Sequence record: NC_055708.1
From: Enterobacteria phage ATK47
Strand: one strand, 5' to 3'
DNA: 64,000 bases
Both the position numbers and the translations under genes were made by a program. Each line of letters starts with the position of its first letter. Position 1 is the first letter of the stretch. Below the pieces are notes generated by a model that saw only the letters and a list, made by a program, of their open reading frames with translations, did no database searches and was not told the origin of the DNA. This document shows, one piece after another, positions 6,226-16,740 of this stretch.

Positions 6226-7218
6226 ATGTTACCTGTCGTCGGAAAACTTATTTCTCCAAAAGAACTGGCTGAGATTATTCCTTTGTCGGAAGCTTACGCA
6301 TCACAAGTGGCTTCTCATCGCGAACAAGTTAATTCGATTATGAACGGTGAAGACCCACGCAAACTTATTGTTGTAGGTCCTTGTTCAATTCATGACCCTA
6401 TTGCTGCTGTTGAATACGGCAAACGTCTGGCTGAACTTCAAACTCGTCTTCCTAATGTTCTGTTAGTGATGCGCGTTTATTTTGAAAAGCCTCGAACTAC
6501 CGTAGGTTGGAAAGGTCTTGTAAATGATCCATATCTTGACGGAAGTTTTGATATGAACCACGGTCTTATAGTTGCACGAACATTGTGTCGTAAACTTCTA
6601 CGTATGGGACTTCCATTAGCAACTGAAGTATTAGACCCATTCACGATTAAGTATCTTTCTGGTATTTTCTCATGGGTTGCTATTGGCGCACGTACGACTG
6701 AAAGTCAGACACATCGTGAAATTGCTTCAGGTCTACCGATGTGCGTAGGCTTCAAGAACGCAACCAATGGTTCTATTAAAGTAGCTACAGACGCGATGTA
6801 TAGTGCCGCCTGGCCTCATCGGTATATGGGTATGGACGTCGATGGTACTGTAGGCATTGTTGAAGCTGAAGGTAATCAGAATACGCATATCGTATTGCGT
6901 GGCGGGACCAACGGCCCGAACTATCATTCTTCTGATATTCAAGAAGCTTCTAACAAAGCAAGGGCAGTAGGTCTGAATCATTATGTAATGGTTGACTGTA
7001 GCCATGCAAACGCTGATGGGCATTATAGCAATCAAATTGGTATTGGTAAAAAATTAGCAGCTAATGATTTGGTCAAAGGAATTATGATAGAATCGTTCCT
7101 ACATGAAGGAAATCAAAAAATTTCTGATAATATGTCCTATGGCGTTTCCGTTACCGATGCGTGCATCAGTTGGGAACAAACTAAAGAGCTGTTAACTTAT
7201 ATTAATAAGGTTCAATAA
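6226..7218 (+). CDS. 3-deoxy-D-arabino-heptulosonate 7-phosphate (DAHP) synthase, class I (AroG/AroF/AroH-like)
   Basis: 330 aa; motifs LIVVGPCSIHDP, VMRVYFEKPRTTVGWKGLVNDP, GARTTESQTHRE and IVLRGG align along its whole length with E. coli AroG as I recall it; AAGGA Shine-Dalgarno; stop overlaps the cd start. Confidence 0.85.
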   Translation: MLPVVGKLISPKELAEIIPLSEAYASQVASHREQVNSIMNGEDPRKLIVVGPCSIHDPIAAVEYGKRLAELQTRLPNVLLVMRVYFEKPRTTVGWKGLVNDPYLDGSFDMNHGLIVARTLCRKLLRMGLPLATEVLDPFTIKYLSGIFSWVAIGARTTESQTHREIASGLPMCVGFKNATNGSIKVATDAMYSAAWPHRYMGMDVDGTVGIVEAEGNQNTHIVLRGGTNGPNYHSSDIQEASNKARAVGLNHYVMVDCSHANADGHYSNQIGIGKKLAANDLVKGIMIESFLHEGNQKISDNMSYGVSVTDACISWEQTKELLTYINKVQ

Positions 7219-10273: not shown

Positions 10274-10280
10274 TTTAACT

Positions 10281-10296
10281 GGGAGCTTCGGCTCCC
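10281..10296 (+). other. Intercistronic GC-rich UUCG hairpin (GGGAGC-TTCG-GCTCCC)
   Basis: Perfect 6-bp stem with TTCG loop directly before the GAGGA Shine-Dalgarno of the next ORF; no T-run. Confidence 0.5.
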
Positions 10297-10308
10297 ACTG
10301 AGGAAATT

Positions 10309-10923
10309 ATGTTTAAAGTTAATACTTTTTATAAAATGAATTTTAAAAATGGGGATATTACTCCACGCCTTAAAAACATGTTCTCATATGACCTTATCGA
10401 GCCTTTTGAAGTTTTAGAAGTTACTGATGCCGGCTCAGTTTGTGAAATTAGAACTTCTGAAGGTAAAATTTATCAGGCAGGTGTTGGTAAATTCAGTAAT
10501 TGTTTTACTTTAATATTCTCGACCGATTTAGATGAGCATTTTATTGAATGTCCTAACCCTAAGGTCCATGAAGTTCCATGGAAAGAAACTAAGAAAAATG
10601 GACCGCATGAATACACGAAGGTTGAAACTCCTCACGGCGATATGTGGCGTCATAACTCTCCTTTTGGAAGTAAAGGAACATTTGCTCAACTGCCTAAACC
10701 GTATGACGATGAAAAATACATCGTCGCCTTTTTATCTGAACAGGGTACTCAAGACCGTGGATGCCAAAGAAGTGGTTTACTAAGTGAACTTGAAGCTCAT
10801 AACCAAGCACGTGAATTCGTTGAGAAAAATCCTGGTTCTGAAGCTCTAGTCATGAAAGCAGTTACTCAATATATCACTGCTCAACCTATTGTTCATCCGG
10901 TAGAAATTAATTTCATTAAGTAG
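10309..10923 (+). CDS. Hypothetical protein, 204 aa (30.6 position)
   Basis: ORF with Shine-Dalgarno; the largest uncharacterised early ORF in the window; several Cys and His residues. Confidence 0.55.
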   Translation: MFKVNTFYKMNFKNGDITPRLKNMFSYDLIEPFEVLEVTDAGSVCEIRTSEGKIYQAGVGKFSNCFTLIFSTDLDEHFIECPNPKVHEVPWKETKKNGPHEYTKVETPHGDMWRHNSPFGSKGTFAQLPKPYDDEKYIVAFLSEQGTQDRGCQRSGLLSELEAHNQAREFVEKNPGSEALVMKAVTQYITAQPIVHPVEINFIK

Positions 10924-10953
10924 TTTACATCCAAGGACGGATTAGAGTATAAT
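10923..10953 (+). promoter_or_regulatory. T4-type early promoter
   Basis: GTTTAC at 10923-10928 and TATAAT at 10948-10953 (19-nt spacer, longer than the others). Confidence 0.45.
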
Positions 10954-10977
10954 GATTTCTTTAGTAAGTGGAAAAAT

Positions 10978-11175
10978 ATGAAATTTTTAATAGCACAAAC
11001 AGTCCAATTAAAAGGTGTTGGAATTCCTGGGGTGATTTTTAAAGTTCTCCCTGAATTTAAAACCGCCGCTGGAATTATCAATGAAGCGTATGCTGTTCAA
11101 TGGGTTGATTGGACTTCTGACATACGTATGGGTAAAGAGTTATCTCCTATTAAAGGGTTGAAACATGTTGAATAA
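10978..11175 (+). CDS. Hypothetical protein, 65 aa (30.5 position)
   Basis: ORF downstream of a promoter; no motif. Confidence 0.4.
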   Translation: MKFLIAQTVQLKGVGIPGVIFKVLPEFKTAAGIINEAYAVQWVDWTSDIRMGKELSPIKGLKHVE

Positions 11176-11377
11176 ATTAATCCAGAAATTGTTAGGTACA
11201 GAAATGATCGAAGTTACTTATCGTGTAACTGACTGCTCGCCTATTCATCCACAGGATGAACCATTTATCAAGACAATTAAAATGCTTAAAAATGACGGTG
11301 GTTTATCTATTGAAGACCGTCTGCCTAGTTACGGCCATTGGGCTGATGTTGAAATTATAAGTGTTAAAGATGTCTGA
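11165..11377 (+). CDS. Hypothetical protein, 70 aa (30.4 position)
   Basis: ORF overlapping its neighbours; no motif. Confidence 0.4.
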   Translation: MLNKLIQKLLGTEMIEVTYRVTDCSPIHPQDEPFIKTIKMLKNDGGLSIEDRLPSYGHWADVEIISVKDV

Positions 11378-11828
11378 ATTAGAAATAAGAAGTAATTTCA
11401 AGTGGCCGTCATGTGCATTAAGTAACTTTGCTCAATGGCCTTTTGTTATGGATGGTATTCAATTCGGAGGTCTTGAAGGATTTCTCCAAGGATGTAAGGT
11501 GAAAAATGTTGAACAACAAAGACGTATATTTGGGTTGTCTGGATTGGCTGCACAGCAAGCTGGAAGGTCTTATGCAAGAGCTCAGGACCGTGGAACTCTC
11601 TTCTGGTTAGGAGTTCCGTTTTCAAGATACTCCGAAGCGTGGAAAGAATTATACACAAATGCATATTTTGAAGCCGCGATCCAAAATAAGGGGTTTCGTG
11701 ATGCCTTACAAGCCTCTAAAGGAAAAATTTTGAAGCACAGCATGGCTAGCCACCTAACAAAAGATGATACAATACTAACTGAAGCTGAATTTATTGATGT
11801 GTTAAACCTATTAAGAGACTCTTTATGA
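11370..11828 (+). CDS. NADAR/YbiA-like (DUF1768) domain protein (30.3 position)
   Basis: ALSNFAQWPF ... DGIQF resembles the FSNF...WP...DG core of E. coli YbiA as I recall it; ATG at 11370 (ORF-track start at 11361 is GTG). Confidence 0.5.
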   Translation: MSELEIRSNFKWPSCALSNFAQWPFVMDGIQFGGLEGFLQGCKVKNVEQQRRIFGLSGLAAQQAGRSYARAQDRGTLFWLGVPFSRYSEAWKELYTNAYFEAAIQNKGFRDALQASKGKILKHSMASHLTKDDTILTEAEFIDVLNLLRDSL

Positions 11829-12640
11829 AGCCTACTATTTTGACTGATATTGATGGTGTATGTTTAAGTTGGCAATCTGGACTTCCTTATTTTGCCCAAA
11901 AATATAATCTTCCATTAGAACATATTTTAAAAATGATTCAGGACGAAAAATTTATTTCTCCTGGTAAACTATTCAATACCGACGATAACCTTGGTAAACA
12001 ATTAATAGAAAAATATAATAGCTCTGATTTTATTCGTTACTTAGCGCCTTATTCAGATGCTCTTCGAGTTATCAATAAACTAAAAGAAGACTATAATTTT
12101 GTAGCCGTGACGGCGCTAGGTGATTCAATTGATGCTCGATTGAATAGACAATTTAATTTGAATGCTTTGTTCCCAGGCGCTTTCTCTGAAGTAATGATGT
12201 GTGGTCATGATTCTTCAAAGGAACAATTATTCGAACTAGCTAAAACAAAATATAACGTGATTTGTTACGTTGACGATTTAGCTCATCACTGTGACCATGC
12301 GGCAGAAATTCTTAATGTACCGATTTATTGGTTGGCTCGTGGTGAACGTGATGATATTCCTCGCACTGCACAACGTGTACACACGTGGGATGATATTGAA
12401 TCTCGATTGGTTCCGCCAGAGCATAATTCAAATTCAGATCGTGAAGACCTTTTAAAACGATTGGCCGATTTGCTTAAAGAATCTGGTGCAACAAGTCCAG
12501 GTGCATGGCCTAATCAAATTGGCGCTCCGTCGAATCCGTATACCTGGCGAACCCCAGGACCAACTGATATGCGGCCATGGTGGACGATTCAAAACTTTCC
12601 TTTAGATTCGTCTAAATGGACTTGGTCTATAAATTGTTAA
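11825..12640 (+). CDS. HAD-superfamily-like hydrolase (30.2 position)
   Basis: N-terminal LTDIDGV matches HAD motif I (DxDG[T/V]); ATGA overlap with the upstream ORF. Confidence 0.5.
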   Translation: MKPTILTDIDGVCLSWQSGLPYFAQKYNLPLEHILKMIQDEKFISPGKLFNTDDNLGKQLIEKYNSSDFIRYLAPYSDALRVINKLKEDYNFVAVTALGDSIDARLNRQFNLNALFPGAFSEVMMCGHDSSKEQLFELAKTKYNVICYVDDLAHHCDHAAEILNVPIYWLARGERDDIPRTAQRVHTWDDIESRLVPPEHNSNSDREDLLKRLADLLKESGATSPGAWPNQIGAPSNPYTWRTPGPTDMRPWWTIQNFPLDSSKWTWSINC

Positions 12641-12649
12641 GGGATACTT

Positions 12650-12919
12650 ATGTTTGTAGTTCATGATATTACAGATGGCAAAAACACCACACGTGACTAC
12701 GGTCACGTTAACATGTTCTTTCGAGACTGGCCATTGTTTCGTTCAGTAAAAGACGCAGAAATATTTAAAGAGTGTGTTGAACAAGGGTTCATCTACATTT
12801 CAGAATACTATGTTGAAGGACTCGGTAAATGGATTACCACTTATCAGAAAACGCTGAAATCGCTTCTAGATGAAGTGGCTTATAATAGAACCGTAACCAA
12901 AATCGAGGACATCAAATGA
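12650..12919 (+). CDS. Hypothetical protein, 89 aa (30.1 position)
   Basis: ORF; stop overlaps the ligase start (ATGA). Confidence 0.45.
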   Translation: MFVVHDITDGKNTTRDYGHVNMFFRDWPLFRSVKDAEIFKECVEQGFIYISEYYVEGLGKWITTYQKTLKSLLDEVAYNRTVTKIEDIK

Positions 12920-14409
12920 TTTTAGATATTTTAAACCAAATAGCTGCGATCGGTTCTACTAAAACAAAACAAGAAATCCTTAAGAAAAATAAGGACAACA
13001 AATTACTTGAACGTGTGTATCGTTTAACATATGCACGTGGTATCCAGTATTATATTAAGAAATGGCCAGGACCAGGTGAAAGGTCTCAAGCGTATGGTCT
13101 TCTTGAATTAGATGACATGTTGGATTTTATTGAGTTCACATTAGCCACTCGTAAACTCACTGGTAATGCTGCAATTAAAGAGCTCATGGGTTATATCGCT
13201 GACGGTAAACCTGATGATGTAGAAGTCCTTCGTCGTGTAATGATGCGAGACCTTGAAGTAGGTGCTTCAGTGTCTATCGCGAATAAGGTGTGGCCTGGAC
13301 TTATTCAATTGCAGCCACAGATGTTAGCATCTGCATATGATGAGAAATTGATTACTAAAAATATTAAATGGCCTGCATTTGTCCAATTAAAGGCAGATGG
13401 TGCTCGTTGTTTCGCTGAAGTTCGCGATGATGGCGTTCAATTCTTTTCTCGTGCCGGTAACGAATACCATGGTCTTACTCTATTAGCAGATGAACTAATG
13501 GAAATGACTAAAGAAGCTCGTGAAAGACACCCTAATGGGGTTTTAATCGACGGTGAATTAGTTTATCATTCATTTGATATTAAAAAGGCTGTGAGCTCAG
13601 GAAATGACCTGTCGTTCTTATTTGGCGATAATGAAGAATCCGAAGAAGTACAAGTTGCAGACCGTAGCACTTCAAATGGTTTAGCAAATAAATCTCTTCA
13701 AGGGACTATTTCTCCTAAAGAAGCGGAAGGTATGGTTCTTCAAGCCTGGGACTATGTTCCTTTAGATGAAGTCTACTCTGATGGCAAAATTAAAGGCCAG
13801 AAATACGATGTTCGTTTTGCTGCTCTTGAAAATATGGCTGAAGGCTTTAAGCGAATTGAGCCAATTGAAAATCAGTTAGTTCGTAATCTTGACGAAGCTA
13901 AAGTGGTTTATAAAAAATATGTTGACCAAGGTCTTGAAGGTATTATCCTTAAAAACCGTGATTCATATTGGGAAAACAAACGCTCTAAGAATCTAATTAA
14001 ATTTAAAGAAGTTATTGATATCGCTTTAGAAGTTGTAGGATACTACGAACACTCTAAAGACCCTAACAAATTAGGTGGTGTCGAACTCGTATCACGTTGT
14101 CGTCGTATTACAACCGATTGTGGTTCAGGTTTTAAAGATACAACTCATAAAACAGTTGACGGTGTAAAGGTTCTTATTCCTTTAGATGAGCGTCATGATT
14201 TAGACCGTGAACGATTAATGGCTGAAGCTCGTGAAGGTAAATTGATTGGACGTATTGCTGATTGCGAATGTAATGGTTGGGTTCATTCTAAAGGCCGTGA
14301 AGGTACTGTAGGTATTTTCCTTCCAATTATTAAAGGGTTCCGTTTTGATAAAACAGAAGCGGATTCGTTTGAAGACGTATTTGGACCGTGGTCCCAGACA
14401 GGTTTATAA
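12916..14409 (+). CDS. 30: ATP-dependent DNA ligase gp30
   Basis: 497 aa; adenylation motif KADGAR; extensive similarity to T4 DNA ligase as I recall it (MIL.ILN.IA.IGSTK ... YRLTY ... ECNGW). Confidence 0.92.
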   Translation: MILDILNQIAAIGSTKTKQEILKKNKDNKLLERVYRLTYARGIQYYIKKWPGPGERSQAYGLLELDDMLDFIEFTLATRKLTGNAAIKELMGYIADGKPDDVEVLRRVMMRDLEVGASVSIANKVWPGLIQLQPQMLASAYDEKLITKNIKWPAFVQLKADGARCFAEVRDDGVQFFSRAGNEYHGLTLLADELMEMTKEARERHPNGVLIDGELVYHSFDIKKAVSSGNDLSFLFGDNEESEEVQVADRSTSNGLANKSLQGTISPKEAEGMVLQAWDYVPLDEVYSDGKIKGQKYDVRFAALENMAEGFKRIEPIENQLVRNLDEAKVVYKKYVDQGLEGIILKNRDSYWENKRSKNLIKFKEVIDIALEVVGYYEHSKDPNKLGGVELVSRCRRITTDCGSGFKDTTHKTVDGVKVLIPLDERHDLDRERLMAEAREGKLIGRIADCECNGWVHSKGREGTVGIFLPIIKGFRFDKTEADSFEDVFGPWSQTGL

Positions 14410-14652: not shown

Positions 14653-16740
14653 ATGTCTGAACAAATAAACGAAGTGTTTGAATCTGAAGGCAGTCTTCCT
14701 GTCGTCAATTTGAACCCTAAAGCTAAAGTTCCACAAGTCTGGAAAATTGGTGATATCGATACAAACATCGTAGTTCGCTTATTCTCTTATCTTTCTGAAG
14801 GCGATGCCGTAAAACAAGTTAAACTTGGCGACAAATACGCTCATGTTGTTATTATGAGTCTATCTGAAAAGGGTAATCTCGCTGAATTGAAAAATGGCCT
14901 TGGTCCTGCTCCTATTGATGCAATCAACACTATTTTCAATACAGTATATGAACAGGTTAAAGCTCTTCGTATGGATGCAGTTCTGTTCCGATTCCCTACC
15001 AAGAAATTGAAAGGACGTGGACAACAGCTTCAAACTCTTCTTGCTCGTTTAGTTTCTACTAAAACCGGTGGTCGTTTTAAAGTATTGTCGGCAATGTATC
15101 AATTCACAGGTAAACACACCTATGTGATGATGGTTCGTAAAAATGCCAACATTGAAGATATTAAAGGCATCCCTAACATTAACACAGAGTTGTATACGAA
15201 AGTAGATTCTGATGTTGGCGAAGTTTATGTGAGTAAAAAGACCGGCGAAAAGGTCACCAAAGAAACGGCTATCGCTGGTTCTATTGCTGCTGTAGAAGAA
15301 AAACGTAAAGATAAGCCTGTTATTGCTCGTACTAAAATTTCTCGTCGTGCTATTGCAGCAAGTCAATCTTTAGAAGCTGACCGACAAGAAGGTGAGTTAT
15401 TCCAGAAATACGAAAATTCTGCTAAAGAAGTTAGTGGCCCAGCTACGGCCGAATTACTTCCTGAAGCATATGAAATCGTACTAGCCCAAGCATCGTCCAC
15501 AGCAAAAGGCACTTTAGTTGCTGATATCGAAAATAAGATTTATAATCGTATTGATGAATCCTTTAAATTTGCCGATGAAGTTTCTTATGGTAGTGTTATT
15601 AAGCCGACTTTAGAAAAGTTTGCTAAGAAAATTAAAACTGAAAAAACAACATCTGTTAAAGCATTAGCTGCTTTTGTTGAAGCTGCAAATGAAATTGCAG
15701 ACTCTATTAAAGACGAATGGTTTGAAGATTTTAGACGTGATAATTTCCAACTGCCTGACGACGTTTTAGCTGAAGTATCTGAAAGAACTTGGAAACAACG
15801 TAAATCAGCGTTCTTGTCTAATGTGATGTATACTTATGCCCGAGAATCGGCTAGAGGCACCTTTAATATAACAATGAATCGGGACCCTAAACAATACTCT
15901 GTTGCTGAAAAACGAGCTATTCGTGAATATGCCTCTTCTGCGTATACCGATATCAATAATATGTTGTTAGGTCGTTATAAACCGGATTTTTATGATGTTG
16001 CAGATGAAGATGAAGTTAAACGCGCTATTGATGGTCTTGATTCGGCGTTTTTAAATGGAGACCGTTTACCTGAAGGACTAACGTTATATAGAGCTCAGTC
16101 TATCAGAATGCCTATTTACGAAGCAATGGTTAAAAATAAGGTATTCTACTTCAGAAACTATGTTTCCACTTCACTAGCTCCTATTATTTTCGGTGGGTTT
16201 AAAGAGAACGTTGCCCTTGGACTTGCTCCTGAAGAAGTTCGCAAAGAGCTTAACATTGACAATAATGACGAAGGTGTTACTATTTCTCCTAGTCAAGTAA
16301 GAACAGCTATGCATGCACCAGAACAAATCCGTGTTAACGTTGGATGGGCTATCGATGGCGCCCATAAAGTTAACGTGATTTATCCAGGACAGTTGAGTAA
16401 CCACCCTAATGAGCAAGAAATTATTTTGCCTAGAGGCATTCTCTTGCAGATAAATAAAATTACAGATGCGTCATCTGACACCGGTGCAGGTTTAGAATCC
16501 AACCTTAAATTTATTCAAGCTGAAGTCATGTCCTCAGACCAGTTGGATGAAGCCGTCATTTATGATGGTGATGTTCTCATGGAAACAGGCGAGGTGGTTG
16601 CTATGACGGGTGAAATCGAATCGGATGAGCCGGTATCGTTCTCCTCATTTGTAGAAAAAACTAGTGCACCTAAAGGTTTGAAATTGTTAGCATCTTTAAT
16701 GGATTTAGAATCAGTTCCGTTTAAATTTGTCCAAGGATAG
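14653..16740 (+). CDS. alt: Alt ADP-ribosyltransferase (capsid-packaged, modifies host RNA polymerase)
   Basis: 695 aa (T4 Alt is about 682); position between ligase and gene 54; AAGGA Shine-Dalgarno; ART-like region in the C-terminal half. Confidence 0.8.
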   Translation: MSEQINEVFESEGSLPVVNLNPKAKVPQVWKIGDIDTNIVVRLFSYLSEGDAVKQVKLGDKYAHVVIMSLSEKGNLAELKNGLGPAPIDAINTIFNTVYEQVKALRMDAVLFRFPTKKLKGRGQQLQTLLARLVSTKTGGRFKVLSAMYQFTGKHTYVMMVRKNANIEDIKGIPNINTELYTKVDSDVGEVYVSKKTGEKVTKETAIAGSIAAVEEKRKDKPVIARTKISRRAIAASQSLEADRQEGELFQKYENSAKEVSGPATAELLPEAYEIVLAQASSTAKGTLVADIENKIYNRIDESFKFADEVSYGSVIKPTLEKFAKKIKTEKTTSVKALAAFVEAANEIADSIKDEWFEDFRRDNFQLPDDVLAEVSERTWKQRKSAFLSNVMYTYARESARGTFNITMNRDPKQYSVAEKRAIREYASSAYTDINNMLLGRYKPDFYDVADEDEVKRAIDGLDSAFLNGDRLPEGLTLYRAQSIRMPIYEAMVKNKVFYFRNYVSTSLAPIIFGGFKENVALGLAPEEVRKELNIDNNDEGVTISPSQVRTAMHAPEQIRVNVGWAIDGAHKVNVIYPGQLSNHPNEQEIILPRGILLQINKITDASSDTGAGLESNLKFIQAEVMSSDQLDEAVIYDGDVLMETGEVVAMTGEIESDEPVSFSSFVEKTSAPKGLKLLASLMDLESVPFKFVQG

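Follow-up and report, generated by a model that had tools for sequence, protein, structure and literature searches.

The DNA analysed here is a stretch of 64,000 nucleotides, called the window throughout. Its sequence agrees at 100% with that of Enterobacteria phage ATK48 (KT184310) and runs across the joined ends of this record. ATK48 is a Mosigvirus that was obtained from sewage with E. coli O26:H11 as host. On the plus strand, a tightly packed run of genes at 10978-14409 comprises 30.5, 30.4, 30.3, 30.2, 30.1 and gene 30, which encodes DNA ligase. These genes were identified from Pfam and PHROG matches and with the annotations of T4 and RB69 as reference. The ORFs flanking 30.3 match Pfam Phage_30_8, Phage_T4_Gp30_7, DUF3045 (30.1) and ATP-dependent DNA ligase, which bears out the 30.x early cluster in which a sequence-only reading of the window had placed the gene. 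The KT184310 record has no annotated CDS between 30.7 and 30.1 (window 10274-12650, equal to KT184310 140508-142883). Five ORFs are missing from this annotation: a 204-aa ORF, 30.5, 30.4, 30.3/adfN and 30.2. Most related records name 30.3 'hypothetical protein'.

The 204-aa ORF (10309-10923, plus strand) lies between 30.7 and 30.5, in the place taken by gene 30.6 (93-95 aa) in T4 and RB69. Its PHROG match is 17531 (E=5e-144, function unknown), and the Pfam search gave none. The ORF is a variable insert within the hyperplastic 30.x region. The annotation of ATK48 also includes, between cd.3 and cd, an AroG-like DAHP synthase (phospho-2-dehydro-3-deoxyheptonate aldolase; window 6226-7218, plus strand). 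According to the T4 annotation, this gene is absent from the cd.3-to-cd interval of T4. It is possibly an auxiliary metabolic gene.

Gene 30.3 (adfN) occupies 11370-11828 on the plus strand and codes for a protein of 152 aa, very probably a phage-type NADAR DNA ADP-ribosylglycohydrolase. The window sequence and the ORF list place its ATG at 11370 and its TGA at 11826-11828. The protein contains the motif A16-LSNFAQWPF-25 followed by D28-GIQF-32. Reading frame, product length and motif are thus all present as the sequence-only reading had described them. A GTG at 11361, which would add three codons, was rejected as start; the ATG at 11370 agrees with the annotated start in T4 and RB69 and with the start of the Pfam model. 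Upstream lies the 30.4 homologue from the ORF list (11165-11377, plus strand, 70 aa; PHROG 2042, E=5e-34; 75% identical to RB69 gp30.4). Its 3' end, with the stop codon, and the start of adfN share 8 nt (ATGTCTGA). Downstream, the stop of 30.3 and the start of 30.2 share an ATGA (11825-11828, plus strand), an arrangement typical of translational coupling that is kept in T4. The best sigma-70-like consensus match ahead of 30.5-30.4-30.3-30.2-30.1-30 is TTTACA-18-TATAAT at 10924-10953 (plus strand, 11 of 12 positions). The region has 24 sigma-70-like sites in comparison to 20.2 expected from shuffled sequence. Because this is no excess, the site is just a candidate early promoter of the operon, and the transcription start is putative. 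T4 has an annotated internal out-of-frame ORF, 30.3' (75 aa). Its counterpart in the window, in frame +1 of 30.3 (11465-11569, plus strand), stops after 34 codons. With its frame broken by this stop, 30.3' is unlikely to be a genuine conserved gene.

The 30.3 product matches Pfam PF08010 (Phage_30_3, 'Bacteriophage protein GP30.3') with E=1.8e-69 and 232.3 bits against a cut-off of 36 bits, and the match spans model positions 1-138 of 138. It also matches PHROG 652 (E=9e-52), and 107 homologues were retrieved from the databases. With this support, 30.3 is not a chance ORF. The sequence-only reading had compared the protein with YbiA and the NADAR family (DUF1768) and had proposed an HMM search and a structural comparison. 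The HMM search answered in part: window gp30.3 itself has no match to Pfam NADAR PF08719 at E<=1, but 22 of 65 family members match this model, with a best E of 1.5e-7, and the homologue P0082 bears both PF08719 and PF08010. A single-sequence phmmer search with gp30.3 against PDB sequences found nothing, and NCBIfam and PADLOC searches gave no match. A profile built from the 65 homologues had a sole match among PDB sequences, E. coli YbiA (E=0.0089). The alignment joins the SNF...E-x6-K core of the family with YbiA FSNF...SEHYFQAQK.

An AF2 model of window gp30.3 (pLDDT 88.7, pTM 0.86) has the YbiA fold, an alpha-helical core between two small beta-sheets, and the fold was matched by NADAR structures only. 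Together with the retention of E36, K43 and H123, this supports the proposed NADAR/YbiA-like identity. Window gp30.3 is tied to the NADAR superfamily by structure, motif and transitive matches, and not by direct ones to PF08719 or PDB sequences; the tie is firm.

Across the 65 homologues, 18 positions are invariant, including E36, K43 and H123, and all 18 are kept in the window. S18-N19-F20, E36 and K43 are present in the window and invariant in 65/65. In the profile match, the catalytic Glu36 (GAA, 11475-11477, plus strand) is paired with the conserved YbiA Glu, and the catalytic Lys43 (AAG, 11496-11498, plus strand) follows at the E-x6-K spacing found in YbiA. Mutations E36A and K43A each abolish the function of T4 AdfN (PMC11257639). 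His123 (CAC, 11736-11738, plus strand) is located on the last beta-strand (E120-123 of the model) and is likewise invariant in 65/65. The gp30.3/phage NADAR family is recognised by a His in this place, as opposed to Glu in YbiA-family and Asp in DarG1/BC4488-family enzymes (PMC11125620; PMC11543638). The C-terminal alpha-helix of residues 138-151 (11781-11822, plus strand) is intact and confidently modelled. E140, F141, L145 and R149 of this helix are near-invariant among the 65 family members. Taken together, gp30.3 of the window is, with high confidence, an intact orthologue of T4 AdfN and a minimal, single-domain NADAR enzyme. As an orthologue, it would hydrolyse guanine-linked ADP-ribose as the T4 protein does.

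The T4 protein is well characterised. Gene 30.3 of T4 was renamed adfN, for anti-DarT factor NADAR, in 2024 by Johannesman, Carlson and LeRoux (PMC11257639). When the DarTG1-sensitive RB69 was crossed with T2 or T4, both resistant, the determinant of resistance was located at the 3' end of 30.3 (PMC11257639). Deletion of adfN in T4 or T2 lowers plaquing on DarTG1 cells by about 4 logs, and ectopic AdfN fully rescues RB69 while the E36A and K43A versions fail (PMC11257639). Purified AdfN strips ADP-ribose from DarT1-modified DNA, and a two-hybrid assay detected no interaction between AdfN and DarT1 (PMC11257639). [quoted passage not shown] T4 NADAR hydrolyses guanosine-ADP-ribose and leaves thymidine-ADP-ribose intact (PMC11125620; PMC12945103); reversal of cytidine-ADP-ribose is listed just for NADAR and YbiA-type families (PMC12945103). 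Transposon sequencing revealed a specific loss of 30.3/adfN insertions on DarTG1 hosts (bioRxiv 10.1101/2025.11.20.689424), and phage growth on E. coli K-12 does not require adfN (PMC11257639; 10.1101/2025.11.20.689424). There are limits to the activity: uninfected cells are not protected from DarT1 by T4 AdfN, and T5 and Bas25 gain hardly any benefit from it (PMC11257639; PMC11125620). The authors explain these limits by a preference for hydroxymethyl-cytosine DNA (PMC11257639).

The function of AdfN is therefore already known and the finding is not new. The counter-DarT role that the sequence-only reading had proposed for the window gene is supported through the 96.7%-identical T4 orthologue (PMC11257639; PMC11125620; bioRxiv 10.1101/2025.11.20.689424). 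The experiments suggested with it, comparing the plaquing of phages that have or lack the gene on DarTG1 hosts and removing ADP-ribose from modified DNA in vitro, are published for T4 gp30.3/AdfN with the predicted outcome (PMC11257639; PMC11125620; 10.1101/2025.11.20.689424). The other known anti-DarTG1 gene, adfA (T4 61.2), is absent from the window by tblastn (best match E=0.21).

A mechanism can be outlined from these steps, which were shown for the T4 orthologue and which we infer for the window allele. The DarT1 toxin of the toxin-antitoxin defence DarTG1 would transfer ADP-ribose onto the N2 amino group of guanine in phage DNA and thereby block replication. After infection by a T-even phage, AdfN would be made from the early 30.x gene cluster. 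The enzyme would hydrolyse the N-glycosidic bond between guanine and ribose at a centre formed by E36, K43 and H123. Release of ADP-ribose would restore normal DNA and replication could proceed. AdfN would thus act as an 'orphan antitoxin', similar to a type IV antitoxin, which works on the damaged DNA and does not bind the toxin.

The window allele resembles that of T4 over its full length. T4 gp30.3 also has 152 aa and is 96.7% identical, ungapped over all 152 residues, with E36, K43 and H123 in both. The T4 gene is likewise located between 30.4 and 30.2, upstream of DNA ligase, and has the same ATGA overlap with 30.2. Five substitutions separate the proteins: K11R, E89P, I120V, M125I and H128G, the second letter being T4. 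None falls on an invariant column. H128, located in a variable loop, is the single window-specific residue; T4 and RB69 have Gly. Codon differences between the window and T4 comprise 35 synonymous and 5 non-synonymous changes, indicating purifying selection. The genome backgrounds differ: the window is a Mosigvirus genome, and the Mosigvirus RB69 has arabinosyl-hmC DNA in contrast to the glucosyl-hmC DNA of T4 (PMC11257639). RB69, the best-known Mosigvirus, is the closest genome background, with 98-99% identity to the window for 30.2, 30.1 and 30. Its gp30.3 is 97% identical to the window protein over the shared 137 residues. In RB69, a T is inserted after gene position 410, between the equivalents of window 11779 and 11780. 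The resulting frameshift deletes the last 15 residues with the C-terminal helix and breaks the coupling of 30.3 to 30.2. Three-way DNA and protein alignments showed that this T is absent from the window, which reads through to the T4 C-terminus; residues 138-152 are identical to T4.

RB69 is sensitive to DarTG1 and its 30.3 is a natural null allele (PMC11257639); the truncation explains the sensitivity (PMC11257639). Two other Mosigvirus phages, Bas46 and Bas47, are resistant to DarTG1, and resistance goes along with a full-length 30.3 (PMC11257639). Given the full-length allele and the retained catalytic residues, the window allele is predicted to be active and ATK48 to be resistant to DarTG1, unlike RB69. 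A decaying, inactive gene as in RB69 would have precedents, as null or fragmented alleles are known from RB69 and, in the form of shortened or fused products, from several further T4-like phages, and the gene is unannotated in the source GenBank record. For the window, such decay has a very slight chance: the ORF is full length, the C-terminal helix and the 18 invariant positions are intact, synonymous changes dominate, and full-length 30.3 is associated with resistance (PMC11257639).

Truncated gp30.3 products of 83-126 aa are found in several T4-like phages, for example SV76, UGJNEcP4, vB_Eco_NR1 and RPN226 (homologues P0004-P0007, P0013-P0018, P0051 and P0102). Some are fused to PF11097, PF06919 Gp30.7 or PF06019 Gp30.8. 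Judged by these putative truncated database products, loss or rearrangement of adfN may recur beyond RB69.

The similarity to T4 is local. At the protein level, gp30.3 is 96.7% identical, in comparison to 49% for 30.4, 73% for 30.2, 57% for 30.1 and 66% for the essential ligase. Nucleotide identity rises from 55-66% to about 90% over 11400-11900, is about 80% up to about 12300 in the 30.2 core, and then falls to 50-68%. The 90% island suggests a recent natural inter-genus exchange of adfN among T-even phages, or else an exceptional constraint or selection on this sequence. An exchange, if true, would mirror in nature the laboratory crosses of RB69 with T2 and T4.

Compared with other NADAR families, the window enzyme is small and orphan. 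DarG1 NADARs of the BC4488 family (G. lovleyi 8bat, E. coli C7) are linked to DarT1, whereas 30.3 of the window has 30.4 and 30.2 as neighbours, no adjacent DarT1, and no PADLOC defence-system match for 30.3 or 30.2. DarG1 has the last-strand Asp and an N-terminal extension (219 aa in 8bat); window gp30.3 has His123 and is a bare core of 152 aa. T4 AdfN is unable to replace DarG1 in uninfected cells (PMC11257639; PMC11125620). The YbiA-family proteins of PF08719, E. coli YbiA (2b3w) and P. nicotianae NADAR (8bau), share 18-21% sequence identity with window gp30.3 and have the last-strand Glu where the window protein has the invariant His. The roles of YbiA in riboflavin damage control and swarming differ from that of AdfN.

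A distant member of the gp30.3 family, P0042 (38% identity), is encoded at 6001-6468 of L005, a jumbo-phage-like metagenome contig of 308 kb. Genes for a NUDIX hydrolase and a Thg1-like protein are located 2.6-4.8 kb downstream on the opposite strand. Released ADP-ribose might in principle be processed by the NUDIX enzyme.

Gene 30.2 (11825-12640, plus strand, 271 aa) encodes a protein similar to phosphatases of the HAD superfamily; its core, residues 1-222, resembles 5'(3')-deoxyribonucleotidases. The AF2 model has a pLDDT of 84.6 overall, above 90 in the core and below 50 for residues 227-271. In Foldseek, the top matches of the model were the deoxyribonucleotidases 2jao, 2i7d and 3bwv (E ~1e-7), alongside other HAD hydrolases and among 113 matches at E<=1e-3. 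Motif I (D8-x-D10-G11) and K132 of motif III are invariant; T96 of motif II and D150-D151 of motif IV are near-invariant. Sequence scores are below the cut-offs, with E=0.013 and 16 bits versus 23.8 for HAD_2 and 12.7 versus 125.4 for TIGR01428, so HAD membership rests on fold and motifs. Fold and motifs confirm a HAD-like hydrolase downstream of 30.3, and the window sequence confirms the ATGA overlap at 11825; both were noted in the earlier reading. The tail, residues 225-271 (window 12497-12637), is rich in Trp and Pro (…PGAWPNQIGAPSNPYTWRTPGPTDMRPWWTIQNFPLDSSKWTWSINC) and predicted to be disordered. Its length varies among homologues of 176-347 aa. An obligate pairing of 30.3 and 30.2 was rejected, because the distant homologues P0042 and P0082 are located in phage-like contigs with unrelated neighbours. 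An ORF downstream of a distant gp30.3-family gene gave BLASTP E=1.6 against gp30.2. A Shewanella T4-like contig has 30.2 beside the ligase and no PF08010 gene, and an Acinetobacter T4-like phage retains 30.3-30.2-ligase. The pairing is synteny inside T4-like phages, not a conserved two-gene module.

Several other roles of the enzyme were considered. DarT1 lesions could be one of several targets, with other guanine-ADP-ribose adducts as the main natural substrates, either in RNA or in DNA modified by non-DarT transferase toxins, for example those of YarT or ScARP/pierisin type. Enzymes of every NADAR family, that of T4 among them, remove guanine-linked ADP-ribose set by the unrelated transferase ScARP, and all act on this adduct in RNA (PMC11125620; PMC12945103). 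Distant gp30.3-family members occur in phage-like contigs without DarT nearby, and gp30.3 is conserved far more strongly than its neighbours. Against this stands the phenotype: the sole known effect in vivo is against DarTG1, and the gene is dispensable on E. coli K-12, as mentioned above (PMC11257639; 10.1101/2025.11.20.689424). A main role on such adducts is rather unlikely, and it widens the anti-DarT1 explanation with an unchanged chemistry. A YbiA-like metabolic N-glycosidase was considered as well. It would destroy reactive intermediates of the riboflavin pathway, the COG3236 function, or another small-molecule N-riboside. The fold and the SNF...E-x6-K core are common to gp30.3 and E. 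coli YbiA, and some sources name homologues 'YbiA (DUF1768 family)'. This role has a minimal probability in view of the replacement of the YbiA-family Glu by the invariant His, the position of the gene within a phage early cluster, and the direct de-ADP-ribosylation of DNA by the T4 orthologue with its defence-specific phenotype (PMC11257639).

The neighbourhood offers two further ideas. The window encodes an Alt ADP-ribosyltransferase at 14653-16740 (plus strand, 695 aa; PF03496, E=6.5e-28; 93.5% identical to RB69 Alt), as the sequence-only reading had remarked, and AdfN could erase ADP-ribosylation of the phage itself, either the marks of Alt, ModA and ModB on host proteins or RNA-linked marks. 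The alt gene is located 2.8 kb downstream of adfN, and 30.3, 30.2, ligase and an Alt-like transferase are also neighbours in an Acinetobacter T4-like phage. Erasure of own marks is nevertheless hardly probable. Alt has an ADP-ribosyltransferase exoenzyme domain (PF03496) and is annotated as modifying the alpha subunit of RNA polymerase. Base-linked ADP-ribose is the substrate of the NADARs characterised so far, and that of T4 is selective even among bases, cleaving the adduct of G, not of T (PMC11125620). No growth defect was reported for adfN mutants when DarTG1 is absent. The gene order 30.3-30.2-30.1-30-(alt.1)-alt is conserved T4-like synteny, and distant 30.3 homologues have no adjacent ADP-ribosyltransferase. 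A pair of Alt as writer and AdfN as eraser was rejected on substrate chemistry and for lack of evidence for a functional link; the presence of both in one window is conserved T4-like gene order. The other idea concerns the range of AdfN. Its restriction to T-even phages could be due to a dependence on gp30.2, which would dispose of released ADP-ribose or complete repair, instead of a preference for hmC-DNA. The ATGA overlap joins adfN to this suggested helper gene. A helper is compatible with published observations, since RB69 keeps an intact 30.2 in all rescues and AdfN alone failed in T5, Bas25 and uninfected E. coli (PMC11257639). In vitro, AdfN suffices by itself (PMC11257639). The dependence on gp30.2 is very unlikely.

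The analysis adds little new biology, as the function is established; the local news is the annotation gap and the island of about 90% identity with T4. Gene 30.3 can be entered in the ATK48 record as adfN, encoding a DNA ADP-ribosylglycohydrolase. With its intact allele, this Mosigvirus infecting E. coli O26:H11 is predicted to escape DarTG1, which is relevant to the choice of phages for therapy or biocontrol.
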